This document shows, piece by piece, positions 24,278-49,023 of a DNA stretch of 64,000 nt. Position 1 is the stretch's first letter. Every line of letters starts with the position of its first letter. Made by a program: the position numbers and the translations under genes. Origin of the DNA: Candidatus Omnitrophota bacterium (GTDB lineage: Bacteria; Omnitrophota; Gorgyraeia; JAHIPI01); the NCBI GenBank assembly GCA_016783745.1, contig JADHVZ010000002.1, forward strand, positions 12,012-76,011. Direction: 5' to 3'. The notes beneath the pieces are model-generated. The model saw only the letters and a list, made by a program, of their open reading frames with translations. It did not search any database and was not told where the DNA came from.

Positions 24278-24278
24278 C

Positions 24279-29847: not shown

Positions 29848-30612
29848 CTAATCACTTCGCACAACAACATTGTCGTTCACCATCATAGAGCCTGGCTTGA
29901 GCTCTTTTAAGATCGCCGCCGCGGCCATTGTATCGTAGATCTTTTCTACCTTAGCTTCGCCGACATACTTACCGCCCCTGAACACCGTTAACATATTTCC
30001 CAGGCGGATATCGTCTCTGGTGCCTATATCCACCACTATAAAATTATACTCCCTGTTGATGATAAGTACCTTGCCCTCAAGCTCGCCCGCCGCCCTTACG
30101 ACTATACGCTCCAGCTCTATGCCCTGCTTGTTTACTATATCGCGGACCTTGTCTTCCAGGACATCCTTGACCTCTGCCAGTTTATCAATGCGCCCCTTAA
30201 GCTCACTGTATTTTGTTTTTTCTTCATCAAGTGTACCTTGTATCTTACGCTTTTCGCTTAAAGCGGAGTTTAATTTTGACCTGATCCCTTCTATCTCGCT
30301 GTCTTTCTTGCTGAGCCTGGACCTTATGATGTCGTTCTGCGATTTTTCCTTCTCATAGGTCTCCTCGAGCACTTTTTTTTCCGTCTCAAGGGCGTTTATA
30401 TTCATATCGAGGTCTTTCTTTATCAGCTCAAGCTCCTCTACCTCAAGAGACAACCTTTTTCTCTCTTTCATGGTCTGAGCAAGCTCGTTCTGAAGGGCGA
30501 TTTTTTCCTCTTTTTCGCTTTTTAGCGACATAGACAATACTAAAGAAACTACTATTAAAACCACCGCGACCGCCAGCGAAACGATAGTGACAATTTTATT
30601 TTCTTTTAACAT
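29848..30612 (-). CDS. Hypothetical membrane-anchored coiled-coil protein
   Basis: 254 aa. An N-terminal TM segment is followed by about 150 aa of heptad-rich coiled-coil and a C-terminal beta-rich domain of about 70 aa. I do not recognise the family. Confidence 0.5.
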   Translation of the reverse strand: MLKENKIVTIVSLAVAVVLIVVSLVLSMSLKSEKEEKIALQNELAQTMKERKRLSLEVEELELIKKDLDMNINALETEKKVLEETYEKEKSQNDIIRSRLSKKDSEIEGIRSKLNSALSEKRKIQGTLDEEKTKYSELKGRIDKLAEVKDVLEDKVRDIVNKQGIELERIVVRAAGELEGKVLIINREYNFIVVDIGTRDDIRLGNMLTVFRGGKYVGEAKVEKIYDTMAAAAILKELKPGSMMVNDNVVVRSD

Positions 30613-33161: not shown

Positions 33162-35999
33162 TTATTTTCTCCTTTTGAGACCCCTTACTACTTCCCCGCA
33201 TTTCAAGCAAAGCCCGGGGTGTTCCTTATCCGCCCCTACAGTGGATGCGTAATTCCAGCACCTCTGGCATTTATTACCGTCCGCCTTTGAGATCCTTATG
33301 CTTACCGGGATCTCATCGGCTTTTCTGCTTCCGGATGGCGGGTCTTTAGCTATTTCGACAGATGATACTATAAAAAGTGTGTTGAATAGTTTCGTTTCCT
33401 GGTCAAGGGTGTCCAGCCACTCTTTATTATCGCTGTACAGAACTACTTTTGCGTCAAGCGAACTTCCGATCACACCTTCGCCTCTGGCTTCCTCCAGCAT
33501 CTTCAGGACAGAATCCCTCAACGGTAAAAGCCTATCGCTCCATTTCCGTATATAAGATTCCCCGAACGCGCCTGAGGTCATCTGCTTCAGCTTTTTCAGG
33601 TCCGGCCAGTCTTCAAGATAAATGCTTTCGGCCTTTACTCCGGGAAGAGAGCGCCAGACTTCTTCCGATGTGTACGCTAAAACAGGCGCCATGACCCTGG
33701 ATAGAATGCTGATTATCTCATAAAGAGCGCTCTGGGCGCCCCTCCTTAAGCGAGATTCCCTGCCGGCTGTATATAAAGTGTCTTTAAGCACATCGAGATA
33801 TATCGAAGACATATCCACGACGCAGAAATTATAGATCGAGTTAAAAACTTTATGGAACGCGAAATTCTTAAAATTACTCTCGGCCGTCTCGAGTAACCGG
33901 CACGCGCGCCACATCGCCCACTTGTCTATTTCAGACATATCTTCTATTGGTACGGCATTATTTGCCGGATCGAAATCATAGAGATTGCCGAGCATATACC
34001 TCGATGTGTTTCTTATCTTTCTGTAGGCATCGGCAAGCCTGGCCAGAATGACCTCTGATAAACGCACATCGTCTCTATAATCGCAGGAGGCGACCCAGAT
34101 GCGCAATATGTCGGCCCCGTATCTTTTCATCACGTCTTCCGGAGATATGACATTGCCAAGCGACTTGGACATCTTTTTTCCCTCGCCGTCCACTACGAAC
34201 CCGTGAGTCAAGACCGACTTATATGGCGCGCTCCCGTCGATAGCCGTAGAGGTAAGGATGGCTGACTGAAACCACCCGCGATGCTGGTCACTGCCTTCGA
34301 GGTAGAGGTCGGCCGGGAATTCCTTTCTCGGCTTCAAAACAGCCTGATGGCTTACCCCTGACTCGAACCATACATCTAATATATCAAGTTCTTTTTCGAA
34401 CTCATCGGATCCGCATTTTTTGCATTTTGTCCCGGCAGGAATAAGCTCCGAGGCCGCTTTAATGAACCAGGCGCCGGAACCTTCCTTTTCAAATATACCC
34501 GCTACATGATTTATAATGTCTTTATCCAATAGCAGCTCATCGCATTCAGCGCAGTAAAGCGCGGTTATGGGAACTCCCCAGAGGCGCTGCCTTGAAAGGC
34601 ACCAGTCAGGCCTGTTCCGGACCATCGTCGAAATGCGGCCTTGGCCCGCCTCAGGCACCCACTTAACAGACTCTCCGATGAACTTGCCTACCCTGGTTCT
34701 CAGGCCGTCATGGTCCACGTTCATAAAATATTGAGCGGTCGCCCTGAAAATAATAGGGCTCTTACACCTCCAGCAATGCGGATACGAATGCCCCGCGTCT
34801 TCACTGTGCATCAAGGAATTTATACTTTTGAGCTTCTCGATTATTTTTTTGTTTGCGTCAAAGACGTGTAAGCCCTTAAATTCCGCGGCGGTTTCATCAA
34901 ACCTGCCTTTTGAGTCTACGGGCATTACTGTCGGTAGTCCGTATTTTTTCCCGGTCAAATAGTCTTCATGGCCATGTCCGGGAGCGGTATGCACACATCC
35001 TGTGCCCTCTTCATGCGATACATAATCCGCCAGCACGATTTTCGACGTTCTGTCAATAAACGGATGAGCGCAATCAAACCCTTCGAGATCCCTTCCTTTG
35101 AATGTAGAGATAATCGAAGGTTCCGCCAGCTTCAGTTTTTTACTTAAGGCTTCAAAGAGGTCCTGGGCGAGTATCAGATATGAACCACTGTTTTCCACAA
35201 GAACGTATTTCAAAGTCGGGGCGAGCGCTATTGCTACATTAGCCACGAGCGTCCATGGCGTAGTCGTCCATATGAGGACATGGGCATCTCCCTTTACGCG
35301 CGCGGCTGCTTCACTGCCCAACGCCTTTTTAAACCGGCCCGTTTCGTTTAGCTTAAATTTTACAAAAACGGACGGGGATGTGCGCGGATTATATTCGATC
35401 TCTGCCTCCGCCAGCGCGGTCTCACATTTATAGCACCAGTTTACCGGCTTAAGATCTTTGTAGATATAACCCTTACCGACAAGTTCCGCGAAAGACCTTA
35501 TGATGGCTCCCTCATATTCCGGATTCAGCGTCAAATAAGGATTTTCCCAGTCCCCGAATATCCCCAGCCTCTCGAATTGAGCCTTCTGTATCTTCACGAA
35601 TTTAAGAGCAAAATCCCTGGCCTTGTTCCTGAACTTCACCTGGGGGATATCGCCCTTTTCTATGCCGAGCTTTTTCATCAGCTGGTGCTCGACCGGCAGG
35701 CCGTGGCAGTCCCAACCCGGGATATACGGCACATTATATCCGGCAAGGGTATTGAACTTTATTACAATATCTTTGAGGATCTTATTGAGCACATGCCCCA
35801 TGTGTATATCGCCGTTGGCGTACGGCGGGCCGTCGTGCAGGACATATTTAGGGGCCTTCTCTCTCTTTTTCGACATAAGGCGGTAAATATCCTGTTCCTT
35901 CCAGCGCTTCAGCATCTGGGGTTCGCGCTGAGGCAGGTTGGCCTTCATGGGGAAGTCCGTCTTCGGCAGATTTAAGGTATCTTTGTACTCCATTACCAT
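33162..35999 (-). CDS. ileS: Isoleucyl-tRNA synthetase
   Basis: 945 aa with the class I signatures HMGH and KMSKS (KMSKSLGN) and a C-terminal zinc-binding CxxC pair. Confidence 0.97.
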   Translation of the reverse strand: MVMEYKDTLNLPKTDFPMKANLPQREPQMLKRWKEQDIYRLMSKKREKAPKYVLHDGPPYANGDIHMGHVLNKILKDIVIKFNTLAGYNVPYIPGWDCHGLPVEHQLMKKLGIEKGDIPQVKFRNKARDFALKFVKIQKAQFERLGIFGDWENPYLTLNPEYEGAIIRSFAELVGKGYIYKDLKPVNWCYKCETALAEAEIEYNPRTSPSVFVKFKLNETGRFKKALGSEAAARVKGDAHVLIWTTTPWTLVANVAIALAPTLKYVLVENSGSYLILAQDLFEALSKKLKLAEPSIISTFKGRDLEGFDCAHPFIDRTSKIVLADYVSHEEGTGCVHTAPGHGHEDYLTGKKYGLPTVMPVDSKGRFDETAAEFKGLHVFDANKKIIEKLKSINSLMHSEDAGHSYPHCWRCKSPIIFRATAQYFMNVDHDGLRTRVGKFIGESVKWVPEAGQGRISTMVRNRPDWCLSRQRLWGVPITALYCAECDELLLDKDIINHVAGIFEKEGSGAWFIKAASELIPAGTKCKKCGSDEFEKELDILDVWFESGVSHQAVLKPRKEFPADLYLEGSDQHRGWFQSAILTSTAIDGSAPYKSVLTHGFVVDGEGKKMSKSLGNVISPEDVMKRYGADILRIWVASCDYRDDVRLSEVILARLADAYRKIRNTSRYMLGNLYDFDPANNAVPIEDMSEIDKWAMWRACRLLETAESNFKNFAFHKVFNSIYNFCVVDMSSIYLDVLKDTLYTAGRESRLRRGAQSALYEIISILSRVMAPVLAYTSEEVWRSLPGVKAESIYLEDWPDLKKLKQMTSGAFGESYIRKWSDRLLPLRDSVLKMLEEARGEGVIGSSLDAKVVLYSDNKEWLDTLDQETKLFNTLFIVSSVEIAKDPPSGSRKADEIPVSIRISKADGNKCQRCWNYASTVGADKEHPGLCLKCGEVVRGLKRRK

Positions 36000-36856
36000 T
36001 AAATATATTTTCCTATTATTAAATCCAGCTTCTTCCTTGTCTCAGCCGGGATCATGTCCTTCGAGGTTATGATAGCGTCTTTCAAGCTTGAACCGCAGGA
36101 GCAGCTCCTTTTCACAGGGATGCCCTGGATCGCGTTCTTCACAGTCGTTTTTGCGGCTTCGCTGTTTTTCATCAGATTCCGAACGATCATCTCTATTGTG
36201 ACGTCTTCCGAGACGTGCCAGCAGTCATAGTCTGTCACCATCGCAAGCGTCGCGTAACAGATCTCGGCTTCCCTCGCGAGCCTGGCTTCCGGCATATTCG
36301 TCATTCCGATAATGTCGATCCCCCAGCTTCTATACAAAAGCGATTCCGCTCTTGTGGAAAAAGCCGGGCCCTCCATATTGATGTACGTGCCGCCTTTATG
36401 TACGGTGACACCCGCTTTTTTTCCCGCTGTGAACAGCGCGCCGCTTAGTTCACCGCATACAGGATCCGAAAAAGCTATATGAGCCGCGACACCTTCTCCA
36501 AAAAATGTGGTCTTCCTTGCCTGGTTAGTCCTGTCAATAAACTGATCCGGTATGACCATATCAAGCGGCTTAAGCCCTTCTTTCAGGCTTCCGACCGCGG
36601 CGACCGATATTATTCTATCGACGCCCAATTTTTTCATACCGTATATATTCGCGCGGTAATTTAATTCACTCGGCAGTATTTTGTGGCCTGTCCCGTGACG
36701 CGGCAGAAACACCACAACCTTGCCTTCCAGTTCGCCTGAAATAAAACTATCCGAAGGATCGCCGAATGGCGTAGTCACTTTCTCTTCCCGGCGGTTTTTT
36801 ATTTCATCAATATTATATACGCCGCTTCCCCCTATGACTCCTATTTTGCCCATCAC
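35999..36856 (-). CDS. mtnP: S-methyl-5'-thioadenosine / purine nucleoside phosphorylase (PNP-I family)
   Basis: 285-aa PNP/MTAP fold (GVIGGSG…, phosphate-binding region). Confidence 0.8.
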   Translation of the reverse strand: MMGKIGVIGGSGVYNIDEIKNRREEKVTTPFGDPSDSFISGELEGKVVVFLPRHGTGHKILPSELNYRANIYGMKKLGVDRIISVAAVGSLKEGLKPLDMVIPDQFIDRTNQARKTTFFGEGVAAHIAFSDPVCGELSGALFTAGKKAGVTVHKGGTYINMEGPAFSTRAESLLYRSWGIDIIGMTNMPEARLAREAEICYATLAMVTDYDCWHVSEDVTIEMIVRNLMKNSEAAKTTVKNAIQGIPVKRSCSCGSSLKDAIITSKDMIPAETRKKLDLIIGKYI

Positions 36857-36961: not shown

Positions 36962-37264
36962 TTATCGCAGCATACTTCCCAGCTGGTACAAGCTTGAGAC
37001 CAGAAACATCCTCAGAAAAAAAAGAGCCATTATCGCCAGTATCGGCGATATATCTATCCCTATGTTATGGGCAGGGATAAGCCTTCTGAAAGGATAGAGT
37101 ATAGGTTCCGTCAGTTTAGATAAAAGCTGGACTAAAAAATTATACGGGTCAGGGCTGAACCAGCTTATAACGGCTCTTATGATGATCAACCATGAAAGAA
37201 AACGTATAGCCATTTCCAGGACACCGGCGACAGCTATAAAAAGATTACCGAGAATAAACATCAT
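36962..37264 (-). CDS. yggT: YggT-family membrane protein
   Basis: 100 aa, two TM helices, and the YggT motif ISWF.PD…L..LTEP.L.P.RR..P..G.D.SP. Confidence 0.7.
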   Translation of the reverse strand: MMFILGNLFIAVAGVLEMAIRFLSWLIIIRAVISWFSPDPYNFLVQLLSKLTEPILYPFRRLIPAHNIGIDISPILAIMALFFLRMFLVSSLYQLGSMLR

Positions 37265-38088
37265 TTATCTCCGTCGCTAAGTTCCCTTGAGCGCTTTTCG
37301 GCGGCCTTTATCCCATCCCTGATGATGCCATCGAGCCTTCTATCCTCAAACACCTTGAATGCCGCCTCCGTGGTTCCGCCTTTAGACGTAACACGCTTTC
37401 TCAGGCTTTCGGCGTTATAACCGCTGTCTCTAAGCAGGATAGCGCTGCCCAGCGCTGTCTTAAAGGCCAGATGCCTTGCCCTGTCCTCGCCTATTCCCAT
37501 TTCTACGGCGCATTTCTCCAGCATCTCAGTCAGATAGAAAAAGTACGCCGGGCCGCTTCCCGAGACCGCTGTTACCGCGTCCATAAGCCGCTCTTCGATC
37601 TCGATAACGTCACCGATCGACTTAAATATTTGAGTCACTAATCTCTTATCCTGATCGATGACTTCTGAGTCAAAACTTAAAGCGGACATACTTTGATTTT
37701 CAAGCGCCCCCATGTTTGGCATGACCCTTGCTACGCGGACATCAACGTCAAGTATCTTCTTTATCTTTTCTATGGAAATGCCGGCGGCTATGGAAATTAC
37801 CAGCTTGGAGGAATTCAGAAGGTGTGAGACTTCTCTTAAAAGCTCTTTGGCATCCTGAGGCTTTACGGCAAATAAAATAGCGTTACAGGAATTGATCAGC
37901 TCTTCGGAGGAATTGGCCACGTTTGCGCTAAGGCTTCCGCTGACAAAACTGCTCTTCTCAGTCAAGTGATCATACAGATAGAGATTCCCGGAATATATTG
38001 ACCCCGAGGCTACAACGCCTTTCGCGATAGCCTCCCCCATGTTCCCGCATCCGATTATACCGAGCTTAATATCTCTCTCGAATTCCAT
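37261..38088 (-). CDS. proC: Pyrroline-5-carboxylate reductase
   Basis: 275 aa with an N-terminal Rossmann motif GIIGCGNMGEA and a P5CR C-terminal dimerisation domain. Confidence 0.9.
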   Translation of the reverse strand: MEFERDIKLGIIGCGNMGEAIAKGVVASGSIYSGNLYLYDHLTEKSSFVSGSLSANVANSSEELINSCNAILFAVKPQDAKELLREVSHLLNSSKLVISIAAGISIEKIKKILDVDVRVARVMPNMGALENQSMSALSFDSEVIDQDKRLVTQIFKSIGDVIEIEERLMDAVTAVSGSGPAYFFYLTEMLEKCAVEMGIGEDRARHLAFKTALGSAILLRDSGYNAESLRKRVTSKGGTTEAAFKVFEDRRLDGIIRDGIKAAEKRSRELSDGDK

Positions 38089-38111
38089 ATTATTGTCCCC
38101 TTAATATTTCT

Positions 38112-38807
38112 TTATTTAAAAATGGCGGAACCGATTCTTACGATATCGGCGCCCTCTTCGATAGCTACTTCAAAATCACCCGACATCCCCATCGATAGAT
38201 GCTTCATGTTGATATTGTCGCGATTATAAGGCTTTAGATCCCCCAGCAGTTCTTTTAACTTCCTGAAATGAGGCCTTGAATCCTCCGGATCGTCTGAATA
38301 CGGCGCCAAAGTCATTAGTCCGAGCAGCATAATGTTCTTCATGCCGGCTATTGACCCCACAAGGCCCCTGACGCCGTCAGGGCTGATCCCGAACTTAGAG
38401 CCTTCACCGGAAACGTTTACCTGGACCAGGATACTTTGCGCTTTATTAAGCTTTTCCGCCTCTATCTGAATTCTTTCGGCAAGATGCAGGCTATCCACAG
38501 AATGTATCAGATCAAACAGCTGAACCGCCTTTTTAACTTTGTTTGTCTGAAGGTGTCCTATAAAATGCCAGCGGACAGCCTGCGCCCCGCTAAGCCGGCT
38601 GTATTTTTCCTCGGCGTCACGGACTCTATTTTCGCCAATATCCGTTATGCCTGACTTTATCGCCTCTTCCGCCTCATCGATGCCGGCCTCTTTTGTAACG
38701 CAGACAAGGACGATATCAGAGGCGCTTCTGCCGCAAGCCAATGCCGTTTTTTCGATCTTCGAATTGATATTACTAAGTTTATTCCTGATCATCTTTTTTA
38801 TTGGCAA
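38112..38807 (-). CDS. yggS: YggS-family pyridoxal-phosphate homeostasis protein
   Basis: 231 aa with an alanine-racemase N-terminal-like TIM barrel (…VTKEAG…HFIGHLQTNK…). Confidence 0.85.
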   Translation of the reverse strand: MPIKKMIRNKLSNINSKIEKTALACGRSASDIVLVCVTKEAGIDEAEEAIKSGITDIGENRVRDAEEKYSRLSGAQAVRWHFIGHLQTNKVKKAVQLFDLIHSVDSLHLAERIQIEAEKLNKAQSILVQVNVSGEGSKFGISPDGVRGLVGSIAGMKNIMLLGLMTLAPYSDDPEDSRPHFRKLKELLGDLKPYNRDNINMKHLSMGMSGDFEVAIEEGADIVRIGSAIFK

Positions 38808-38889
38808 AACAGAATAGCATAATAGTCACATATTGTCAACGCAATTAAGGTGTAAAGAGGCTGGAATATGAGGCAGATAAACGAAGATA

Positions 38890-39942
38890 CTAAAAATAAT
38901 CGCTAATAAAGTCGCCTACGCTTCTTGAGATCTTTTGCAGTATCCTGGGCCGGCCTTTTCTGCGGGTCAGGCCTTCAAGCCTTCGCTCTGCGCCGTACAG
39001 CGCAAGGCCGATCGATGTCAGATGGGAAGTGTTTTTAATGTCTCTGGCTCTTCCTTTTGCGTTACGCACATATGATGTCTCGGACGGAATACCAAATATC
39101 AAATTCACTTTTTCAACGAAATCCTCATGGATAAAACCTCCGCCTGTCAAATATATCTTAGAGACCGTTTTATCACGGCGGATCTTATCGAGTTTCGACT
39201 TTAGCTCCTCAAGCACGCCGTCCTGTATCACGCTTTTCTCCACAACAGCTGTACCCCTCAACAAGTTGTCGTAAAACAGGCATCCGGAGGTGTAGCTGTT
39301 ATCGATCTCCAATAATATTACGCCTTTTTTCTCAGTTTCCGCCGACAGCAGGCACTTCGAACTCGCGATCCCGGAAAAAACAATATCTTCCATGTCGATA
39401 CCCGCGAGGTTCATCGCCTTGACTATATTCTGCAGGAACGGGACATGTGCCATGACAAGCAAGGCCTCTATCTCCAGCTTTACGCCGTAAAGCCCTACTG
39501 GATTCTCGATATCACTCTGGCCGTCTACCACAAAATCCTGAGGTATCGAATGAATTATTTCTTTCTCAATATTGATCGGCATGGTATTGGCTACCTTAAG
39601 CGCGTCTTTTATGTTTTTGTCGGTGATCTCTTCTCCCCGCAGGTTAAGCTTTGCTATGCCGCGGCTTTTCTCGCTGAATATATTGCCTCCGGAGACTGAG
39701 ATAAAAGCCTTTTGTCCTTCAGATCCGGATTCCTCGCGAGCCATGCGGAGGGCCTTGCGAATGGCACGGCTCAAAACGTCTATGTCGAGGACTCCTTTGC
39801 CGCCCAGGAGTCTTCCTTCCGATTTTCCGAGCCCGGTTACAAGCAGGCCTTCCTCCTTACTTAGGGCCGAAATACATGCCGACACCCTGGAAGAATGAAC
39901 ACTTATGGCAGTAATAATATTGTCTTTTTTTATCTTTTCCAT
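38890..39942 (-). CDS. ftsA: Divergent FtsA-like actin-fold cell-division protein with eroded nucleotide-binding motifs
   Basis: 350 aa, collinear with FtsA (…IENPVGLYGVKLEIEALLVMAHVPFLQNIVKAMNLAGIDMEDIVFSGIASS… aligns with the E. coli FtsA sequence [51 protein letters not shown] recalled from memory). The phosphate motifs are degenerate: DIGGGT is replaced by EIDNSYT, and EIGT by the corresponding N-terminal segment ISVHSS. Confidence 0.7.
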   Translation of the reverse strand: MEKIKKDNIITAISVHSSRVSACISALSKEEGLLVTGLGKSEGRLLGGKGVLDIDVLSRAIRKALRMAREESGSEGQKAFISVSGGNIFSEKSRGIAKLNLRGEEITDKNIKDALKVANTMPINIEKEIIHSIPQDFVVDGQSDIENPVGLYGVKLEIEALLVMAHVPFLQNIVKAMNLAGIDMEDIVFSGIASSKCLLSAETEKKGVILLEIDNSYTSGCLFYDNLLRGTAVVEKSVIQDGVLEELKSKLDKIRRDKTVSKIYLTGGGFIHEDFVEKVNLIFGIPSETSYVRNAKGRARDIKNTSHLTSIGLALYGAERRLEGLTRRKGRPRILQKISRSVGDFISDYF

Positions 39943-40742
39943 TTCGGGCCGATCACCGGTTCTTTAAAGCGAAGGTCTATGTATCTTATGTCTTCGGGCC
40001 TGATCTTAGTGTCCTGCAGTATAGTCTTGAGATTGTTCAGCCTGGATGCGTATTCCTCATGCCCTATCTTGATCTCAAGCCCGTCCTCCAGAAAAAATAT
40101 TGTATTCCTGATGCTTGAGACATCGATTTCCACAAGCTTATGCTCACCAAGTATACCCGATGAATCCAGCTCTTTCAATAAATACAAGGCCTTTTTAACT
40201 CTTTTTGATTCAGCCTTCGACCCGACTTGCATGGAAACATCCATGCGGATACCACTGATTATGGGCAGGTTATTATCGGGTGATTCCTTTACTTTCGACA
40301 GCAAAACAGCATCAGAATCTACAGGGTAGTATAGGCCTTTATGTATCTGCGCTATAGGGTATCTTAGTATCACTTTCGCCATTACTGTGGCCGGAAACGC
40401 CCTGCTAAGCCTCAGATCAGATAACTCCGGATAATCTTGCAGCATGCGCCGCCGGATGCCGTTCAACCCTAACATAAATATATTTTTCCCGACTATCATT
40501 TCCTGAAGGTCGGTATAATTTACGGTAGAATCCGCTGTCTTCCCGGCCAATATAAGTTCCCGCACTACAAAATGAGAGCTTTTAAAATAAAACAGGTAAA
40601 AAGATGTGGCCGTCAGGGCAAGCGCGAACAAGATCGCAAGCGACACTATCAGCTTCTTGCGGGAGGCCGTACCGCCCGGCCCCCTGGCCTTATCACGTTT
40701 CTGCTTACCGCTTTTCGCTATCTTTGCTTTAAAGTATGGCAT
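39930..40742 (-). CDS. ftsQ: Cell division protein FtsQ/DivIB
   Basis: 270 aa with a basic N-terminus, one TM segment, and POTRA and beta domains. It sits between ddl and the ftsA-like gene. Confidence 0.75.
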   Translation of the reverse strand: MPYFKAKIAKSGKQKRDKARGPGGTASRKKLIVSLAILFALALTATSFYLFYFKSSHFVVRELILAGKTADSTVNYTDLQEMIVGKNIFMLGLNGIRRRMLQDYPELSDLRLSRAFPATVMAKVILRYPIAQIHKGLYYPVDSDAVLLSKVKESPDNNLPIISGIRMDVSMQVGSKAESKRVKKALYLLKELDSSGILGEHKLVEIDVSSIRNTIFFLEDGLEIKIGHEEYASRLNNLKTILQDTKIRPEDIRYIDLRFKEPVIGPKWKR

Positions 40743-40757: not shown

Positions 40758-41690
40758 TTATTTTTTCTTCCCCTTGTTTTCCGTCGCAAGCCGCAACAGC
40801 TTCACGCACAGCTTACCAAAACTTATCCCCGCGGCTTCCGCGGCTTTCGGCATTAGGCTTCTTTCGGTAAGCCCCGGTATTGAGTTGACTTCAAGCACAT
40901 ATATCGCGCCGTCCGGGGAGAGCAGCATGTCAACTCTCGAAAAATCACTGCAGCCCAGAGACTGATGGGCGGCGAGTGCGAGCGCCTGCGCTTTTTCAGC
41001 CAGGCCTTCCGGCAATTCTGCCGGCACCCTGTATTCTGTTTTCTTATTCTTATATTTCGCGTCAAAATCATAGAAGACATTTTCCGGTATTATCTCGACT
41101 ACAGGCAGCGCGGTCTCTTCTAAAATCCCTACTGTTATTTCTCTCGCTTTTATAAATTTCTCGACTATGATGCTGGGTGAGAACATAAACGCATTTCTGC
41201 ACGCGTTATCAAATTCATCTTCATTCCGGGCCATCGACAGCCCGATACTTGAACCTTCATTTTGCGGCTTCACGACAACCGGCAGCGACAAAGAGCCCAG
41301 CGCCTCACGGGACGGTTTGTTAAGTATCTTGTAGTCAGGCACTGGTATATTGTTTTCTTCGAATATCTTTCGCGAGGCTATCTTATCCAGCGCAAGTCGT
41401 GAAGCATTGGCCCCGGAACCTGTATACGGTATGCCCATAGCCTCCAGGATCTTTTGCACGGTCCCGTCTTCGCCGAATCGTCCGTGAAGTGCTATAAAAG
41501 CTATATCCGGCCGGCGGCGCTTCAATTGATTTTCAGCATCTCTTCCGTCAAGTTCCACCAGCTCAGCATCAAGTCCTTCAAGCCTCAGCGCCTCATATAC
41601 AGCCCTGCCTGATCTTAATGAAATATCGCGCTCGTTCGACGGCCCGCCCGCGATAATAGCTACCTTTCCCATGCCTTCAGCATTAGACAA
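40758..41690 (-). CDS. ddl: D-alanine--D-alanine ligase
   Basis: 310-aa ATP-grasp protein with Ddl N-terminal and C-terminal domains. Confidence 0.95.
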   Translation of the reverse strand: MSNAEGMGKVAIIAGGPSNERDISLRSGRAVYEALRLEGLDAELVELDGRDAENQLKRRRPDIAFIALHGRFGEDGTVQKILEAMGIPYTGSGANASRLALDKIASRKIFEENNIPVPDYKILNKPSREALGSLSLPVVVKPQNEGSSIGLSMARNEDEFDNACRNAFMFSPSIIVEKFIKAREITVGILEETALPVVEIIPENVFYDFDAKYKNKKTEYRVPAELPEGLAEKAQALALAAHQSLGCSDFSRVDMLLSPDGAIYVLEVNSIPGLTERSLMPKAAEAAGISFGKLCVKLLRLATENKGKKK

Positions 41691-42606
41691 TTTTTATCTC
41701 CGTTGACAGCTCGACGCCGCTTTTATTCCTGACGCTCTTTTTCGCAAGATAGATAAGGCTCATAACATCGCTGGCGCTGGCCCTTCCCCTGTTCACTATG
41801 AAATTAGCGTGTTTTGGCGAGATCAAAGCGCCGCCCGAGGACTTGCCTTTAAGCCCGCATTCATCTATAAGGGCGCCGGCGGACCTATCGAGATCAACAG
41901 GATTTTTAAAAATGCAGCCGGCGCTCGCTATTCGAAGCTCCTGGGTCTGCTTCTTTTTTAACAAATAATTATCGCATTCTCTCCTGATATCGCTTTCGCC
42001 TTTCTTTATCAAATTAAATTTTACTTCAAGGATCATACTGTCTTTAAGGCTGACTGACTTGTTGCTGAACGAAAATTCGAGCTTATTTAATAGCTTGATC
42101 CCGCCGTCACGCTCCATTACCCTGATCTCTTCGACAAAATCTCCGATATTATGCCACTCAACGGTATTTTCATAATGCCTTGACGCGGCATTCGTCATAG
42201 TGGCTCCGCCGACTGATCCGGGGATACCCGAAAGAAACTCCAGTCCGCCCAACCCTCTGTCGCCGCAGAACCGCAAAAATTCATTAAGAGATACTGAGGA
42301 GGAAACGCATACCTTTTGGCCGCTCCAGAAGATATAATTCAAACTGGGAGAACTCATATTTATGACAACACCCTTTATGCCTTCGTCTCTGACCAGAATA
42401 TTTGTTCCGTTGCCCAGTGGAATAACCGGAATATTATTTTTTCTGGCAGTCAGAGCGCACTTCTTCAGATCGTCGATGTCTTGAGGTTCGAACCATATCT
42501 CGGCAGGCCCGCCTATCCGGAATGACGTGTGTCTATACATCGGCTCACCGTAACGCACCTTTCCTCTCACATTTGATCTTATGATCTTTTTTATGTCATT
42601 TGTCAT
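41683..42606 (-). CDS. murB: UDP-N-acetylenolpyruvoylglucosamine reductase
   Basis: 307 aa with FAD-binding PCMH and MurB C-terminal domains. Confidence 0.9.
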   Translation of the reverse strand: MTNDIKKIIRSNVRGKVRYGEPMYRHTSFRIGGPAEIWFEPQDIDDLKKCALTARKNNIPVIPLGNGTNILVRDEGIKGVVINMSSPSLNYIFWSGQKVCVSSSVSLNEFLRFCGDRGLGGLEFLSGIPGSVGGATMTNAASRHYENTVEWHNIGDFVEEIRVMERDGGIKLLNKLEFSFSNKSVSLKDSMILEVKFNLIKKGESDIRRECDNYLLKKKQTQELRIASAGCIFKNPVDLDRSAGALIDECGLKGKSSGGALISPKHANFIVNRGRASASDVMSLIYLAKKSVRNKSGVELSTEIKIV

Positions 42607-43958
42607 ATCTTAGACTTAAGCTCCTCCGCGACTTCGTTTATATCTCCGGCGCCGAGCACAAGAACCATATCACCGCTTCCGGCTATCTTTCTTATATGCG
42701 GGCTGATCTCTTCTTTTTTCATATACTCGACGTTCTTGATGCCGCTTCTCTTCATCTCCAGATAAAGATTCTTTGAGCTGATATCCGGAATAGCCTTTTC
42801 GCTTGCCGAATAAATATCAGCCAGAATAGTATGCCCGGCCGCCCGAAAACATCCTATATAATCCTTAAAAAGATCTTTTGTCCTGGTATACCTATGAGGC
42901 TGAAAAACCACTATTACATTTTTCTTCAAAGGCAGGCACGCCCTCAGAACTGCTTCGATCTCCGCTGGATGGTGAGCGTAATCCTCTATCACCATCATAC
43001 CGCCCTTTGTTTTTTTGATCTCGAACCTTCTCTTAGTGCCCTTGTACGCGGCCAACGCGGCCTTTATAACATGAAAATCTATTCCGGCGTCATGGGCCAC
43101 GGATATCGCGGCTAAGGCGTTTGTCACATTGTGCGATCCCGGCGTAGTGAATTTTATGTCTCCGGGCATGGCCTTCCCGTCGATAGAACATTTGAACATC
43201 ATATCAAGGCCTGATTGCCTTATTCCGGCGGCCTGTACTCTGGCGTTTTTAGCCGTTCCGAAGCCGGATTTATTTCCCGGATATTTTGCGCATGATCCCG
43301 CCAGCAGCGCATCATCGGTATTATAGTAAAGCATCCCGCCCTTTTTGATATTATCCGTGAATCTTTCGTAAATATCGACCGCGTTTTCTATTGACTTAAA
43401 ATAATCCAGATGCTCCCTGTCTATGTTCAGCAACACCGCTTTATCAGGGTAAAATTTGAGAAAAGAGCCGTCACTTTCGTCCGCTTCGAATATAAAATGA
43501 TCGCCGTCTCCGGATAGGATGTTAGAATGAAAATTCAGGACTTCACCGCCGATAGCCGCGGACGGCTTCAGTCCGGCGGCTTCAAAGATCAGCGCTATAA
43601 AAGCTGTGGTGGTGGTTTTGCCGTGCGCCCCGGTAACAGCAATACTCTTTTTGGGCTCTGCCAGCTTCGACAGCATATCAGCCCGGTGTATGACAGGTAT
43701 ACCCGTCTTGCGGGCTGATTCAAGCTCCGCGTTGTCGCCCGGTATGGAACTTGAATACACTACCAGATCACATCCTTCCAGATTTCCGCTGTCATGGCCT
43801 ATCCGGCAGCGTATACCTTCGGCCTTCATCTCCTTGATTATACTGTTTTCCTTCGTGTCGGAACCCGTCACTTCATATCCCCGGCGCTTCAATATCCTGG
43901 CGATACCGCTCATGCCTATTCCGCCGATTCCCACAAAGTGGATCTTATTATACGTCAT
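42603..43958 (-). CDS. murC: UDP-N-acetylmuramate--L-alanine ligase
   Basis: 451-aa Mur ligase with GIGGIGMSG and GTHGKTTTT motifs. Confidence 0.95.
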   Translation of the reverse strand: MTYNKIHFVGIGGIGMSGIARILKRRGYEVTGSDTKENSIIKEMKAEGIRCRIGHDSGNLEGCDLVVYSSSIPGDNAELESARKTGIPVIHRADMLSKLAEPKKSIAVTGAHGKTTTTAFIALIFEAAGLKPSAAIGGEVLNFHSNILSGDGDHFIFEADESDGSFLKFYPDKAVLLNIDREHLDYFKSIENAVDIYERFTDNIKKGGMLYYNTDDALLAGSCAKYPGNKSGFGTAKNARVQAAGIRQSGLDMMFKCSIDGKAMPGDIKFTTPGSHNVTNALAAISVAHDAGIDFHVIKAALAAYKGTKRRFEIKKTKGGMMVIEDYAHHPAEIEAVLRACLPLKKNVIVVFQPHRYTRTKDLFKDYIGCFRAAGHTILADIYSASEKAIPDISSKNLYLEMKRSGIKNVEYMKKEEISPHIRKIAGSGDMVLVLGAGDINEVAEELKSKI

Positions 43959-45091
43959 AGTGATCTCGTCTTAAGTTTCATCAGCCTTCCTATCTCATTC
44001 GAAAGGGCCTTTGCCGCGTCAGTTTTAGCCAGCGAACCCATGGCTGCTTTCATGGAATCTCTGAGGCCGCCGTCTTTCATAAGTTCGGCTAGCTTTGAAA
44101 GCAGGGTTTCTTCTGATAGGTCCTTCTCATCTATGACGCAGGCGGCGCCTCTATCACCGAGAAAGGAGGCGTTCCGCGTTTGATGCCTTTCCGCGAAGGG
44201 ATACGGTATCAAGATACAAGGTATCCTGTGCGCGCACAATTCAAAGATCGCCGACGAACCTGCCCTGCTGATCGCGACGTCCGCGGCGCTGTAAACAACA
44301 CCCATACCCTTGAAAAAAGGATACACTACGTGCCGCATACCGGTCTTCCCGTATTCCGCTTTCACGTTCTCATAGTCACTCTCTCCGCAAATATGCACTA
44401 CCTGGATTTTATTCTTCGATCCGGCGTCCATATTCTTAAACATGTCAACGGTTATTATATTGATGCCGCTGGAACCCTGGCTGCCGCCCATCACAAGAAC
44501 CGTAAATCTATCGGTCTCAAGGCTCAAAAACTCCCTGCAAACACCTTTGTCCTGAACATTTACCGCTAATGCGCTTATGGGGTTGCCGGTGACAACTGTG
44601 TTTTTCGACGGTTTTCCGGTATCGTCCGGAAAAGATAGCGCCACCTTTGTAGCGAAGGCCCGCATCATCCTGTTGGCCCTGCCCATTGCGGCATTCTGCT
44701 CATGTATCAAAGTAGGTACGCCCAATAGCGAAGACGCCACAAACGGAGGCCCGGCCACGTATGCGCCGAATCCGACAAAAAAATCCGGCTTGCCGGAGAA
44801 TATTATCCGCATGGATTTCAGTGACCCTTTTATCAGCGAATAAGCAAAACTAAACAACTTTCCGGGCGAACGGATATTCAGGCCCTTGACCGGCAGTGTA
44901 TGGAAATCAAAGCGGCTCTCCCTTAAAAGAGACTTGCCAAGGGCATTATCGGTAGTTAAAAAAGATACCTCGACGCTGTCCCCGTAATCCTTTATTATCT
45001 CCTCTGCCAGCGCAAGCCCCGGAAAAATATGGCCGGCGCTCCCGCCGCAGGCTATGAATATCTTTTTTTTATCTCGCATTACCCCTTCCAA
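43955..45091 (-). CDS. murG: UDP-GlcNAc:undecaprenyl-PP-MurNAc-pentapeptide GlcNAc transferase
   Basis: 378-aa GT28 protein. The N-terminus carries GGSAGHIFPGLA. Confidence 0.95.
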   Translation of the reverse strand: MEGVMRDKKKIFIACGGSAGHIFPGLALAEEIIKDYGDSVEVSFLTTDNALGKSLLRESRFDFHTLPVKGLNIRSPGKLFSFAYSLIKGSLKSMRIIFSGKPDFFVGFGAYVAGPPFVASSLLGVPTLIHEQNAAMGRANRMMRAFATKVALSFPDDTGKPSKNTVVTGNPISALAVNVQDKGVCREFLSLETDRFTVLVMGGSQGSSGINIITVDMFKNMDAGSKNKIQVVHICGESDYENVKAEYGKTGMRHVVYPFFKGMGVVYSAADVAISRAGSSAIFELCAHRIPCILIPYPFAERHQTRNASFLGDRGAACVIDEKDLSEETLLSKLAELMKDGGLRDSMKAAMGSLAKTDAAKALSNEIGRLMKLKTRSL

Positions 45092-46166
45092 GATTCAGTA
45101 ACATGCCTATCAGCATCATATGAGTCACAAGCGAAGTCCCTCCGTAACTGAGAAACGGTAACGGCAGGCCTTTTGTCGGCAGACTTCCGGTGGACACACC
45201 TATGTTTATTATCGCTTCAAGTCCTATTATAGACGTGATCCCGAATGCCAGCAAGCGTGAAAATTCAGAACCCTTTTTAAAAGTTATCCTCATCCCGTTC
45301 CATATCAAGACACCAAACAAAATAACGATCAATCCCGCGCCTACGAAACCCATCTCCTCCCCGATTATGGAAAATATAAAGTCCGTATGGGATTCCGGCA
45401 GATAAAAAAGTTTCTGCTTTGAATTGCCAAGTCCGACGCCAAAGATGCCTCCGGATCCCAGAGCGGTAAAGGACTGTATCATCTGAAATCCCGTGCCTTT
45501 TGGATCCTTCCACGGATCAACGAAGGCCATGATCCTGGCAAACCTGTATGGACTGCTTATGATCAATAGTCCGACCAGAGGCAAGCCGGCGATAAAGGTC
45601 ATAAAGAGATGTTTTATTTTAGCTCCGTACGCATACAGCAATATAATACCTACTACAGCCAGCTCGACCGAACTGCCCAGGTCAGGCTGTATGATGACCA
45701 GGCCGCTCAACGCCGAGATAACAAAGAGGGCAGGCAGATATACCCTTACAAGCGAATCACCCGCGAGCGATTTCCTGTCCAGGAAATCAGCAAGATATAT
45801 TAAGAGGGCCGGCTTAACGACCTCAACAGGCTGAAAATTCAAAAAACCGATTTTGAGCCATCTCCTGGCGCCGCTTACAGATAACCCGACTCCGGGGATC
45901 AGGACCAGGATGAGCATCACGAAGGCAAAGAACATCATTTTTTTCGAATGAGCCCTTAATATATTAAGATCGATAGTCATAAAAATAAATGCAGCGAATA
46001 GGCCTATCAATAGCGATATGATATGGCGCTTTAAAAAAAATAGATTATCGCCGAACCTATCATACGCGTAAACCGCGCTCGAGCTGTATATCATCACTAC
46101 GCCTATAGATACCAGCGTCGCCGTAACTGCGAATATAGATATCCTGGCCCCTCTCAAGCTTTGCAT
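45069..46166 (-). CDS. ftsW: Cell division protein FtsW (SEDS glycosyltransferase)
   Basis: 365-aa polytopic FtsW/RodA-family protein between murD and murG. Confidence 0.9.
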   Translation of the reverse strand: MQSLRGARISIFAVTATLVSIGVVMIYSSSAVYAYDRFGDNLFFLKRHIISLLIGLFAAFIFMTIDLNILRAHSKKMMFFAFVMLILVLIPGVGLSVSGARRWLKIGFLNFQPVEVVKPALLIYLADFLDRKSLAGDSLVRVYLPALFVISALSGLVIIQPDLGSSVELAVVGIILLYAYGAKIKHLFMTFIAGLPLVGLLIISSPYRFARIMAFVDPWKDPKGTGFQMIQSFTALGSGGIFGVGLGNSKQKLFYLPESHTDFIFSIIGEEMGFVGAGLIVILFGVLIWNGMRITFKKGSEFSRLLAFGITSIIGLEAIINIGVSTGSLPTKGLPLPFLSYGGTSLVTHMMLIGMLLNLGRGNAR

Positions 46167-46179: not shown

Positions 46180-47526
46180 TTAGGAAAGTGCCCTGCGGAA
46201 GACGGATGCCTTGAATTCATCCCCCCGCTCTTTATAATTTTTAAACATATCGAAGCTGGAGCACATGGGCGAGAGGATCACCGCGTCGCCACTTTGAGCG
46301 GCCTTTCCGGAAAATGTAACGGCTTCCTGCAGTGTACCGCATTCATGTATCCGCACATCTTGACCGTTTAACGCGCTCCTTATTTTGGATCTCGTTTCGC
46401 CTATTAAAACAGCATATTTTATTTTTTTTGCCAGCTCGATTATAGGGCTGTAATCGCTGCCCTTATCCCTTCCTCCGGCTATCAGAATGACACTCTGCTC
46501 GGGGAAATCCCTCAGCGCCTTCATTGTGCTGTCAACAGTAGTGCTCTTAGAATCGTTTATATATTTTACACCGTCTATTTCGTACACCAGTTCAAATCTA
46601 TGAGGAAGGGCCTTAAAGCTTCTTATAGCATCCAGCATATCTGCGTTGCGGATGTTCAGCTTTAAAACCAGAAAGGCCGCAAGGGCGTTTTGAATATTAT
46701 GAATTCCGCGCAGGCCGGTTTCGCTCCCGCCGCATACATCGACCGGGCCGCTTCCTGTATCAATGAATATTCTCTGGTTTGACAAATAGCTGCCTCTGAC
46801 CTTTTCTTTGACGCTGAAATAGAAGCATTCGGCTTTCACGCCATCCGCCATTCTTCTTACCGCGGGATCATCGTGATCGAGGATCGCGTAGTCTCCGGAT
46901 CCCTGATTCTCGAATATCCGCGACTTTGCTTCACGGTATTTCTTCATGTTTTTATATCTATCCAGATGGTCCTGCGTGACATTAAGTAAAACTGATATTT
47001 TGGGCCTGAATCTCTCTATCGTCTCGAGTTGGAATGAGCTTACTTCAAGAGACACTACAGAGCCGGGTGAGATATCCAGGACCTCTTCGCATATCGGCCT
47101 GCCGATGTTGCCTAAAAGATGCGATCGCATTCCGTTAACGCCAAGCATATGGTGGATCATGGACACAGTCGTGCTTTTGCCGTTTGTGCCCGTCACAGCC
47201 ACTATAGGTGAGCGGCAGAAACGATATCCTAATTCAAGCTCGCTGATCACAGGTATGCCGGCATCCCTGGCCCACTTTAGCGGCTCCGCGTCAAAGGCGA
47301 CTCCGGGACTCGTGACCACAAGGTCGCTTTTTTCGATAAAGCCTTTTGAATGCGCTCCCATTTCACTCTCGACTTCACCCAAGGCTTCAAGCTTGGCCCG
47401 GATGGCGTCATCGTCGCGGGATTCGCTGATGCGCGCGCTCGCGCCAACACGCTTTAACAGCTTCGCCGCGCTAAACCCACTCTCCGATAATCCAATAACT
47501 GTTACCCGCTTATTCGCTATATCCAT
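46180..47526 (-). CDS. murD: UDP-N-acetylmuramoylalanine--D-glutamate ligase
   Basis: Mur ligase with the motif VTGTNGKSTT. The start is better placed at MDIANKRV (the ATG at 47526, preceded by a GGAGG RBS). The ORF-track N-extension (SPNDTSPNDT…) merely translates a 15-bp tandem repeat. Confidence 0.9.
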   Translation of the reverse strand: MDIANKRVTVIGLSESGFSAAKLLKRVGASARISESRDDDAIRAKLEALGEVESEMGAHSKGFIEKSDLVVTSPGVAFDAEPLKWARDAGIPVISELELGYRFCRSPIVAVTGTNGKSTTVSMIHHMLGVNGMRSHLLGNIGRPICEEVLDISPGSVVSLEVSSFQLETIERFRPKISVLLNVTQDHLDRYKNMKKYREAKSRIFENQGSGDYAILDHDDPAVRRMADGVKAECFYFSVKEKVRGSYLSNQRIFIDTGSGPVDVCGGSETGLRGIHNIQNALAAFLVLKLNIRNADMLDAIRSFKALPHRFELVYEIDGVKYINDSKSTTVDSTMKALRDFPEQSVILIAGGRDKGSDYSPIIELAKKIKYAVLIGETRSKIRSALNGQDVRIHECGTLQEAVTFSGKAAQSGDAVILSPMCSSFDMFKNYKERGDEFKASVFRRALS

Positions 47527-47538
47527 ATATCCTCCAGA

Positions 47539-47613
47539 GGGGGACGTGCCACTTGGGGACGTGTCATTAGGGGACGTGTCATTAGGGGACGGTCCAAAAG
47601 GGGACACACCATA
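47539..47613. repeat. Tandem array of five imperfect 15-bp repeats (consensus GGGGACGTGTCATTA) just upstream of murD
   Basis: Read directly from the sequence: ggggacgtgccactt, ggggacgtgtcatta, ggggacgtgtcatta, ggggacggtccaaaa, ggggacacaccatac. Confidence 0.8.
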
Positions 47614-47934: not shown

Positions 47935-49023
47935 CTATCTCAATTTTAATGTCGCCAGCGCAAACAGCGCAAGTATCGCAGAGATGATCCAGAAGCGGAT
48001 CGTGATCTTAGGCTCCGGCCAGCCCTTAAGCTGATAGTGATGATGCAAAGGCGCCATCAGGAATATCCTTTTTCCTTTGAGTTTGAAAGACGCCACCTGC
48101 AGGATCACTGAAAGCGCCTCGATAACAAATACTCCCCCCACGAATAGCAGCAGCACTTCCTTCTTTATCAGCACTGCCACCGTTCCTATAGCGCCGCCGA
48201 GGGCGAGTGAGCCCGTATCACCCATAAATATCGAAGCGGGATGTGAATTAAACCAGAGGAATCCCAGTCCGCCGCCTAAGATGGACGCGCAAAAAACCGT
48301 CACTTCTCCGGCCTGCGGGATAAACGGTATACCCAGATAATCGCTTACCGCAAAATGGCCGGTAACGTAGCACATAGCGCTATATGCGGCGGCGATCATG
48401 ATGACGCATCCTATGGCCAGGCCGTCAAGTCCGTCTGTCAGATTTACGGCATTACTTGATCCGACGATCACTATGATGACAAAGGGGAGGTAAAATATAC
48501 CCAGATCGATGATAAGTTTTTTAAAAAAAGGAAAATGTAAAAGCGTGCTCGCGCCTGATGAAAAATATAAAAAAAGCGCAACGACCGCGCCCATGATCAG
48601 CTGGCCGGTAAATTTGGTCTTTACCCTCAACCCTCCGCCGTCTCTACCGGACAACTTTATAAAATCATCCATAAACCCGACTACTCCAAGCCCCAGAGTC
48701 ACCCCAAGCACCAGCCATATATACGCGTTATCCCAACGCGCCCATAAAAGAGTTGAGATCAGTATGGCGGTGATGACAAGGACCCCGCCCATAGTAGGCG
48801 TTCCGGATTTATTGCCGTGAAACTTATCCAGAGTCGGAGCGTGAGGCCTGTAGGTCTTTTCCCCTATTTCCAGGAAAGATAAAAGTCTTATTATGATCGG
48901 CCCCAGCGCCACGCAGATAATAAACGCGCTGATAGCCGCAAACGCGGTCCGAAAGGTGATGTACCTGAATACGTTAAAGCCGAACCATAATTCTCTTAGC
49001 GGATAAAAGATGTGATAAAACAC
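47935..49023 (-). CDS. mraY: Phospho-N-acetylmuramoyl-pentapeptide transferase
   Basis: The MraY polytopic topology and conserved DD/GxxGxx motifs are present. The start is uncertain: the ORF-track Met at 49131 would overlap murF by 135 nt, so I propose the GTG at 49023 (VFYHIFYPL…). Confidence 0.9.
   Translation of the reverse strand: MFYHIFYPLRELWFGFNVFRYITFRTAFAAISAFIICVALGPIIIRLLSFLEIGEKTYRPHAPTLDKFHGNKSGTPTMGGVLVITAILISTLLWARWDNAYIWLVLGVTLGLGVVGFMDDFIKLSGRDGGGLRVKTKFTGQLIMGAVVALFLYFSSGASTLLHFPFFKKLIIDLGIFYLPFVIIVIVGSSNAVNLTDGLDGLAIGCVIMIAAAYSAMCYVTGHFAVSDYLGIPFIPQAGEVTVFCASILGGGLGFLWFNSHPASIFMGDTGSLALGGAIGTVAVLIKKEVLLLFVGGVFVIEALSVILQVASFKLKGKRIFLMAPLHHHYQLKGWPEPKITIRFWIISAILALFALATLKLR

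Follow-up and report, generated by a model that had tools for sequence, protein, structure and literature searches.

A short FtsA without subdomain 2B ends an ftsZ-less division cluster in a Candidatus Omnitrophota bacterium

This work deals with a short homologue of the division protein FtsA, whose gene closes the division and cell-wall (dcw) cluster in a Candidatus Omnitrophota bacterium, and with the absence of ftsZ from the place next to it. The DNA analysed, hereafter the window, is a stretch of 64,000 nucleotides from contig JADHVZ010000002.1 (assembly GCA_016783745.1). In Pfam and NCBIfam scans, every gene of the division/cell-wall region (23180-55774) was found on the minus strand, and the dcw cluster was complete and contiguous from mraZ to the FtsA homologue, save for ftsZ. 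Around the junction of interest, the genes and intervals were as follows.

39930-40742, minus strand: ftsQ (Pfam FtsQ_DivIB_C, E 1.5e-12)
38890-39942, minus strand: FtsA homologue, 350 amino acids (aa) (Pfam SHS2_FTSA, 73 bits)
38793-38889, minus strand: intergenic gap between ftsA and yggS, the usual ftsZ slot, with a sigma-70-like site inside and no FtsZ similarity
38112-38807 (called start 38792), minus strand: yggS, a pyridoxal phosphate protein of the YlmE family (TIGR00044, 193.5 bits against a cutoff of 106.25)
37261-38088, minus strand: proC (TIGR00112, 257 bits, above cutoff)
36962-37264, minus strand: yggT, YlmG family (Pfam YGGT, E 4.5e-23)
35999-36856, minus strand: mtnP, methylthioadenosine phosphorylase (TIGR01694, 320 bits)
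33162-35999, minus strand: ileS (tRNA-synt_1, E 7.5e-140), the end of the conserved ylm/ileS block

The stop of ftsQ and the start of the FtsA-homologue gene share a 13-nt overlap. On the other side, the gap between ftsA and yggS measures 82-97 bp depending on the yggS start, which is too small for any gene, and a sigma-70-like site lies inside it at 38839-38811 (TTGACA-17-TATTCT, extended by TG). Adding ~10 kb past each end of the window, we inspected ~84 kb of DNA for ftsZ. Three FtsZ queries, that of E. coli and two from fetched loci, had no tblastn match in the window at E <= 0.01, a tubulin signature scan of every frame found none, and Pfam on essentially all long minus-strand open reading frames (ORFs) gave zero matches to the Tubulin/FtsZ_C family. 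No Tubulin/FtsZ gene was found within ~10 kb past either window end, and Pfam and NCBIfam revealed no sepF or zipA-like gene in the ylm block. A sequence-only reading of this DNA had described the order mraZ...ftsQ-ftsA as canonical, yggS as sitting in the usual ftsZ slot and ftsZ as missing from it. All three points were borne out.

The same arrangement was found well beyond this contig. The identical FtsA protein and gene order were present on eight contigs (ENA, Logan and NCBI assemblies), and relatives with 69% and 46% identity retained the order. The slot after ftsA and before the ylm genes was also empty in loci L004, L006, L016 and L017. Overall, ftsZ was found in none of 11 Omnitrophota-type loci, and likewise was not among the called genes of L017 and L018, whereas it directly followed a canonical ftsA in all five non-Omnitrophota loci (L007, L008, L013, L014 and L015). 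A search for ftsZ-bearing Omnitrophota lineages with FtsQ as a probe returned only the same clade and one distant match.

The window FtsA is identical to MBL7070688.1 (ISS26_00740) of a Candidatus Omnitrophica bacterium, annotated as a hypothetical protein. Against the NCBIfam ftsA model TIGR01174 it scored 157.9 bits, under the 175.85 cutoff, with matched profile positions just 2-225 of 371, and the Pfam scan gave no match to PF14450. The features that we located within the protein are these.

39880-39909, minus strand: degenerate phosphate-1 loop, residues 12-21, AISVHSSRVS (census)
39454-39690, minus strand: subdomain 1C (the SHS2 insert), residues 85-163, kept (PF02491, 73.3 bits, profile positions 1-78 of 79)
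39289-39315, minus strand: degenerate phosphate-2 loop, residues 210-218, LLEIDNSYT (census and alignment)
39163-39240, minus strand: scar of the IIB/2B deletion, residues 235-260, with one helix left (spacer length, alignment gap, AlphaFold2)
39136-39150, minus strand: remnant of the adenosine motif, residues 265-269, LTGGG (census and alignment)
38893-38946, minus strand: C-terminal amphipathic helix, residues 333-350, ending DYF (hydrophobic moment, AlphaFold2)

A family profile of 22 members, searched against sequences of the PDB, aligned residues 1-234 of the window FtsA with FtsA 1-232 and residues 261-321 with FtsA 330-390 (V. maritimus, 7Q6F). In this alignment, 26 residues (235-260) stand for ~97 (FtsA 233-329), that is, for subdomain IIB, or 2B, which is deleted. 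Alignment with E. coli and other full-length FtsAs likewise showed a single clean gap over E. coli ~233-310. Because residues S267 and I268 of E. coli FtsA are located in domain 2B (10.1101/2022.10.31.514644), the gapped segment corresponds to that domain. We then took a motif and spacer census of 183 sequences, including 39 clusters of the window clade, 78 of a second short clade called type B and 62 canonical FtsAs. From the phosphate-2 to the adenosine motif, the spacer was exactly 45 residues in 39 of 39 window-clade members, versus 107-138 in the 62 canonical FtsAs. The best AlphaFold2 (AF2) model of the window FtsA (predicted local distance difference test score, pLDDT, 80.7; predicted template modelling score 0.82) had only a helix, 243-255, where 2B would be. 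Foldseek searches with this model gave FtsA structures as top matches (7q6f, template modelling score, TM, 0.77, E 9e-29), ahead of PilM. Thus, the shortness of this FtsA reflects the precise loss of 2B, not general erosion. Gene order, the best sequence matches and the fold all identify the window protein as an FtsA orthologue. Three hallmarks of the family are missing from it, namely a full-length score above the curated cutoff, 2B and the nucleotide motifs, and the name divergent 2B-less FtsA suits it better than that of a standard member.

What would go with 2B can be read from canonical FtsA. The C-terminal peptide of FtsZ reportedly docks on 2B, as Szwedziak and colleagues are said to have found in 2012, and 4A2A, among the Foldseek matches, is by its title a complex of FtsA with FtsZ(336-351). 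The adenine pocket of actin-fold proteins is also walled on one side by 2B. In FtsA filaments, the longitudinal contact is made by IIA and IIB and the lateral one by IC, and the cleft between IA and IC is where FtsN binds (PMC7613929; PMC8897712). In model bacteria, it is the cytoplasmic tail of FtsN that enters this cleft, with FtsQ as a possible partner of IC (PMC7613929).

The nucleotide-binding motifs are altered as well. At phosphate 1, the window FtsA reads A-I-S14-V-H16-S-S-R19 in place of the canonical G-L-D-I-G-T-x-K, with Ser14 for Asp/Glu and His16 for Gly. The acidic residue was absent from all 39 clade members versus present in 62 of 62 canonical FtsAs; the Gly was still found in 15 of the 39. 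At phosphate 2, E212-I-D214-N-S-Y-T218 aligned with E. coli D210-I-G-G-G-T-M (canonical D-I-G-G-G-T). E212, D214 and T218 were invariant in 39/39 and the first Gly was kept in 0/39, the three glycines having become D, then N, S or T, then N, S or H. Over the clade, the loops conform to S-x-H/G-S-S-R and E-x-D-N-x-F/Y-T, respectively. In the adenosine motif (canonical T-G-G), G267 was invariant and the second Gly occurred in 23/39. From these sequences, canonical binding of ATP and Mg by the window-clade FtsA is very unlikely, because an Asp occupies the position of the first phosphate-2 Gly, the loop side chains are bulky and the 2B wall is missing. As for the sequence-only reading, it had noted a short protein with both phosphate motifs degenerate and had proposed predicting its structure. 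The 350-aa length held, with the deletion now localised to 2B; both motifs are indeed degenerate, EIDNSYT having been quoted in the correct register (E212-T218); and the AF2 model retrieved FtsA folds with one helix where 2B sits.

The remainder of the protein is well kept. Many residues of the subdomain 1C region are invariant across the family. At the C-terminus, where the AF2 model has a helix at 335-349, the hydrophobic moment is 0.74, a value matched by none of 2000 shuffles, compared with 0.51 for the membrane-targeting helix of E. coli FtsA; the last two residues, Y349 and F350, are invariant. The 39 clusters of the window clade span 345-353 aa and 46-100% identity, and an alignment of 22 sequences held 48 invariant columns, including the new motif residues E212, D214, T218, S17 and R19 and the terminal YF. 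The constant length and the 48 invariant columns down to 46% identity indicate a functional protein, not a relic.

We then considered how far the short form extends. An exhaustive profile search over 1.84 billion representatives returned additional short relatives in a single stretch, of 348-361 aa. All named relatives of the window FtsA were Candidatus Omnitrophota/Omnitrophica. The second clade, type B, was recovered with a profile made from those additional short relatives and comprised 78 clusters of 342-365 aa, whose named members were all FtsA of Ca. Omnitrophota/Omnitrophica, and it showed only ~27% identity with the window protein. It also lacks 2B (spacer of 40-61 residues), which brings the total to ~120 protein clusters without this subdomain. 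Its motifs are D-I-G-S-S-K (Asp in 78/78), G-x-S-x-T at phosphate 2 and T-G-G, and it ends in Tyr-Phe. Erosion of the phosphate motifs is restricted to the window clade, the larger type B clade keeping most of them. Several short FtsAs are annotated as hypothetical proteins because the curated FtsA models miss or under-score them.

Gene order around these proteins was informative. In the type B locus L017, a 234-kb contig, the order is ftsQ-ftsA-yggS-proC-yggT-mtnP-ileS-...-mreB, without ftsZ; in L018, also type B, unrelated genes follow ftsA, again without ftsZ. The Omnitrophica metagenome-assembled genome (MAG) CG11_big_fil_rev_8_21_14_0_20_42_13 (L016) encodes at 9986-11296 a full-length FtsA of 436 aa with 2B, near-canonical motifs (DLGSSR, DIGADLT and TGGT) and a C-terminal EYF. 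There, yggS-proC-mtnP-ileS come directly after ftsA and ftsZ is absent. A full-length FtsA followed by yggS and no ftsZ suggests that FtsZ was lost before FtsA was truncated. In a neighbour-joining tree (343 columns, 200 bootstraps), a method that is crude at such distances, all Omnitrophota-type FtsAs grouped together in 194/200 replicates, the window clade in 200/200 and type B in 197/200; the short forms as one group were obtained in 0/200, and the full-length L016 protein joined type B, P0216 and P0226 in 106/200. Read literally, and as only a lead, this tree would place the departure of ftsZ from its slot ahead of the loss of 2B, which may have happened more than once.

Two observations on individual relatives may be added. 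A lone short FtsA, P0096 (355 aa), groups with the window clade in 200/200 replicates and has motifs eroded otherwise (AIEISPDR, LDVCRQYAE and LLGSES), which hints at independent decay of the motifs after 2B loss. Also, the GTDB-collection MAGs of L009 and L010, which carry an Omnitrophota-type short FtsA, bear the title 'uncultured Planctomycetia bacterium'; automated taxonomy probably misnamed them.

That the phylum lacks FtsZ is already on record in the literature, if only in a table and a figure legend. Pende et al. (2021) list Omnitrophota as FtsZ-less alongside Planctomycetes and Chlamydiae, and as the sole one of the three keeping FtsA (PMC8178401). In that work, FtsA without FtsZ was scored in Ca. 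Omnitrophus magneticus, RIFOXYB12_FULL_50_7 and WOR_2 SM23_29, and neither protein in GWA2_41_15; both were found in OLB16 only, the other Omnitrophica genomes thus giving FtsZ in 0/4 and FtsA in 3/4 (PMC8178401). The OLB16/SURF_12 lineage was misclassified as Omnitrophica according to Seymour et al. (2023; PMC10066038). Rivas-Marin et al. (2016) found FtsA without FtsZ in 2/3 genomes and left open whether this was real or due to incomplete data (PMC5147048). The literature is not unanimous, since a 2025 survey groups Omnitrophota with phyla of highly conserved dcw genes (PMC12283558). As for the 2B-less FtsA, it appears undescribed in the portion of the literature on FtsA and Omnitrophota that was searched.

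Upstream of ftsQ and downstream of ileS, the region comprises the following genes.

55325-55774, minus strand: mraZ (Pfam)
54172-55080, minus strand: rsmH (Pfam)
53783-54169, minus strand: 128-aa ORF in the ftsL position, between rsmH and ftsI (by position only)
52001-53707, minus strand: ftsI (Pfam)
50371-51831, minus strand: murE (Pfam)
48996-50414, minus strand: murF (Pfam)
47935-49131, minus strand: mraY (Pfam)
46180-47607, minus strand: murD (Pfam)
45069-46166, minus strand: ftsW (Pfam; TIGR02614, 403.7 bits, above cutoff)
43955-45091, minus strand: murG (Pfam)
42603-43958, minus strand: murC (Pfam)
41683-42606, minus strand: murB (Pfam)
40758-41690, minus strand: ddl (Pfam)
28475-29767, minus strand: aroA, EPSP_synthase family, adjoining mreB (TIGR01356, 422 bits, above cutoff)
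23180-28371, minus strand: elongasome block mreB-mreC-mreD-PBP2-rodA (Pfam; MreB and RodA above NCBIfam cutoffs)

The 128-aa ORF had zero family matches in Pfam or NCBIfam; a 128-aa counterpart is also called as a gene in L020. In the type B loci, murC and murB, separate in the window, are fused (747-771 aa; L017 6032-8275, L018 6009-8324), and a table for V. spinosum gives a single locus tag for murB and murC (PMC12283558). After ileS come, by Pfam and NCBIfam, a dksA-type zinc-finger gene, lspA, lgt and rluD. The elongasome block lies ~8.5 kb downstream on the same strand. Both pairs of SEDS protein (shape, elongation, division and sporulation) and class B penicillin-binding protein, FtsW-FtsI and RodA-PBP2, are intact in the window, as is MreBCD. 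The gene at 28475-29767 was at first taken for murA from its EPSP_synthase match, an assignment rejected in favour of aroA on the TIGR01356 score. As a whole, the dcw cluster, the ylm/ileS block (yggS...rluD) and aroA/mreBCD-PBP2-rodA form a super-cluster on one strand, found also in L001, L004, L006 and L017, its order being common to both short-FtsA clades. Between rluD and aroA, at 29848-30612 (minus strand), lies the gene of a 254-aa protein that fits no Pfam family and has SMC-like coiled-coil matches that are weak only. It occupies the same position in L001, L004 and L006 and is missing from L017; in an FtsZ-less cell, it might be a candidate cytoskeletal or scaffold factor.

Elsewhere in the window, a type IV pilus cluster (9768-21644, minus strand) contains a secretin gene, pilO, pilM (12948-14015), two small pilins with N-methyl motifs, pilC, two pilB-type ATPases and a pilT-like ATPase, as well as a stand-alone MshEN-domain ORF (20111-20560). 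Directly upstream of mraZ (56400-58944, minus strand) lie a GGDEF-AAA_16-PilZ protein of 612 aa and a DUF3047 protein, and a HAMP-GAF-GGDEF protein (21663-23072) comes after rodA. With GGDEF proteins beyond both mraZ and rodA, cyclic di-GMP genes flank the division/elongation super-cluster. A HepT/MNT-type toxin-antitoxin pair (62350-62688 and 62681-63004, minus strand) and a zeta-toxin-like P-loop protein (61565-62146, minus strand) were also present.

From these data, we consider it fairly probable that ftsZ was deleted from its ancestral slot and that the remodelled FtsA acts as a membrane adaptor independent of nucleotide and of FtsZ. In this lineage, ftsZ would have been deleted from its place between ftsA and the ylm block (yggS...ileS), and its loss very probably extends to the whole genome; FtsA would then have been remodelled after the loss of its partner by excision of 2B. 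The excision would remove the dock for the FtsZ peptide and half of the longitudinal IIA-IIB contact, and would deprive the adenine pocket of a wall; in the window clade, the phosphate-1 and phosphate-2 loops were additionally rewritten. Purifying selection still acts on the IA-IC body, to which the tails of late divisome proteins bind in model bacteria, on the C-terminal amphipathic helix and on the tight coupling to ftsQ. Presumably anchored at the membrane by this helix, the protein may take up in its IA-IC cleft the cytoplasmic tail of a divisome protein (FtsQ, FtsW or FtsI) or of a small bitopic partner. It would thus serve as an adaptor or regulator of the septal peptidoglycan synthase FtsQ-(FtsL/B)-FtsW-FtsI, without FtsZ or ATP-driven polymerisation. 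Lateral dimers mediated by IC would be possible, and the actin-like longitudinal contact could not form as it does in FtsA. Positioning and constriction would be ensured by means other than a Z-ring, possibly by the nearby MreBCD-PBP2-RodA, by analogy with Chlamydiae.

Several points weigh against this scheme. Type B lacks 2B and yet keeps the nucleotide motifs, and it does not follow that the phylum as a whole can do without nucleotide binding. That ATP is no longer bound is deduced from motifs, and unusual motifs are tolerated in other actin-fold proteins. The AF2 model was built from 22 sequences, and the other four of the five models had pLDDT of 57-66. The adaptor role is itself proposed from sequence. 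Moreover, the ftsZ search covers ~84 kb of one MAG, and MAGs are incomplete; in the 2025 survey, Omnitrophota stand among phyla whose dcw genes are 'highly conserved', ftsZ going unmentioned there (PMC12283558). Taking together the ~84 kb, the literature and the 2B deletion, we still regard ftsZ as likely to be absent genome-wide in the source MAG.

One alternative is that ftsZ merely moved elsewhere, the Z-ring being held by another anchor or by a new surface of FtsA and the short FtsA being a lineage variant. It is true that ftsZ is unlinked from the dcw cluster in some bacteria and that our inspection was bounded to ~84 kb of the genome. The 'highly conserved' dcw genes of the 2025 survey (PMC12283558) could be read in the same way. 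Yet surveys with hidden Markov models were without FtsZ in 4/4 non-OLB16 genomes (PMC8178401) and in 2/3 genomes (PMC5147048), the sole positive being reported as misclassified. In addition, the loss of the FtsZ-docking subdomain in ~120 clusters is hard to square with a kept FtsA-FtsZ partnership, and the ylm block has no sepF or zipA-like gene. We therefore hold relocation to be unlikely. Still less is to be said for a functionless relic decaying after FtsZ loss. The eroded nucleotide motifs, the missing subdomain and the complete loss of FtsA in Planctomycetes and Chlamydiae (PMC8178401) would fit it, but the length is constant at 345-353 aa without frameshifts, the ftsQ overlap is conserved, the AF2 model folds as FtsA, and 48 columns, among them the new motif residues and the terminal YF, are invariant down to 46% identity. 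On this conservation, the pseudogene reading was rejected as very improbable.

A further possibility was that the protein is not an FtsA orthologue at all and is instead PilM-like, or another actin-fold adaptor with an SHS2 domain. Its size of ~350 aa, its score under the NCBIfam FtsA cutoff and the presence of PilM among the Foldseek matches (TM 0.55-0.65) could be taken in this sense. However, the true PilM (PilM_2, 187 bits) is encoded separately at 12948-14015, in the pilus cluster by pilO and the secretin gene, and the window FtsA has no PilM_2 match. Its top sequence and structure matches are FtsA, it has an FtsA-like C-terminal helix, it occupies the ftsQ-ftsA slot in every relative and it groups with full-length Omnitrophota FtsA in 194/200 bootstraps. 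A PilM identity was thus rejected and is even harder to credit than decay. Lastly, as the source is a metagenome-assembled genome, the missing ftsZ might have come from assembly or binning. But the identical junction was found on eight independent contigs of different assemblies, and also in relatives of 46-69% identity from other samples, so that an artefact was rejected and its probability is next to nil.

Going beyond deletion of ftsZ and remodelling of FtsA at this locus, we tentatively suggest a picture for the phylum, which we put forward with some reserve. Omnitrophota may form and constrict a septum of peptidoglycan with a full FtsQ/FtsW/FtsI divisome and no Z-ring, and with FtsA as a pseudo-actin deprived of IIB and, in the window clade, of nucleotide binding and of the longitudinal contact; 2B would perhaps have been shed repeatedly after FtsZ loss. 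In model bacteria, FtsA has two entangled roles, as a membrane tether of FtsZ and as a late-divisome switch acting via IC. The phylum seems to have dropped the tethering role and to have kept the parts for divisome activation. If so, its FtsAs would provide a separation-of-function series, from full-length, to 2B-less with motifs, to 2B-less without motifs, which isolates divisome activation from Z-ring tethering. Such a series would be a model for how septal peptidoglycan synthesis is positioned and activated without a Z-ring, and for whether activation of FtsWI by FtsA needs ATP or polymerisation. It would also be a model for the evolution of the FtsZ-less state in the Planctomycetes-Verrucomicrobia-Chlamydiae (PVC) group, in which Omnitrophota, having kept FtsA and an intact dcw cluster, look intermediate.

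Compared with canonical FtsA (E. coli, V. maritimus and T. maritima; 7Q6D, 7Q6F and 4A2A; TIGR01174), the window FtsA shares the post-ftsQ slot that ends the dcw cluster, the IA, IC (SHS2) and IIA domains and the C-terminal amphipathic helix. In contrast, it has lost 2B, the phosphate-1 Asp and the Gly-Gly-Gly of phosphate 2, and has no adjacent ftsZ. With the type B short FtsAs (P0303, P0278 and P0100), it shares the lack of 2B, the YF end, the post-ftsQ slot and the ftsZ-less synteny, but type B keeps nucleotide motifs that the window clade lost. The super-cluster mirrors the ftsA-ftsZ-ylm-divIVA-ileS-ylyA-lspA-rluD region of B. subtilis. The order yggS(ylmE)-yggT(ylmG)...ileS-dksA-type zinc finger(ylyA)-lspA-rluD is common to both, whereas the window lacks ftsZ, sepF and divIVA and has proC, mtnP and lgt inserted. 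PilM (2YCH, 5EOU) resembles the window FtsA in its size, its actin fold and its IC-type domain, which in PilM binds a short cytoplasmic peptide in the IA-IC cleft (PMC7613929). It differs in that it binds ATP and sits in a pilMNOPQ operon, and its structure is further from the window FtsA than FtsA is.

The sequence-only reading had also seen a resemblance to FtsZ-less PVC lineages in which divisome actin homologues are repurposed. One side of this analogy stood: Omnitrophota share with Chlamydiae and Planctomycetes the PVC affiliation, the lack of ftsZ in the dcw cluster and the listing of the phylum as FtsZ-less (PMC8178401), and they too have kept MreB, FtsQ, FtsW/FtsI and the genes for peptidoglycan synthesis. 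The dcw cluster is fragmented in those groups, whereas it is intact and contiguous in the window, and FtsA is lost there, whereas the window lineage keeps a remodelled and conserved one. The other side calls for a refinement, as the repurposed actin homologue in Chlamydiae is MreB and not FtsA. Because Chlamydiae thus repurpose MreB, it is the retention of FtsA that distinguishes the lineage described here.

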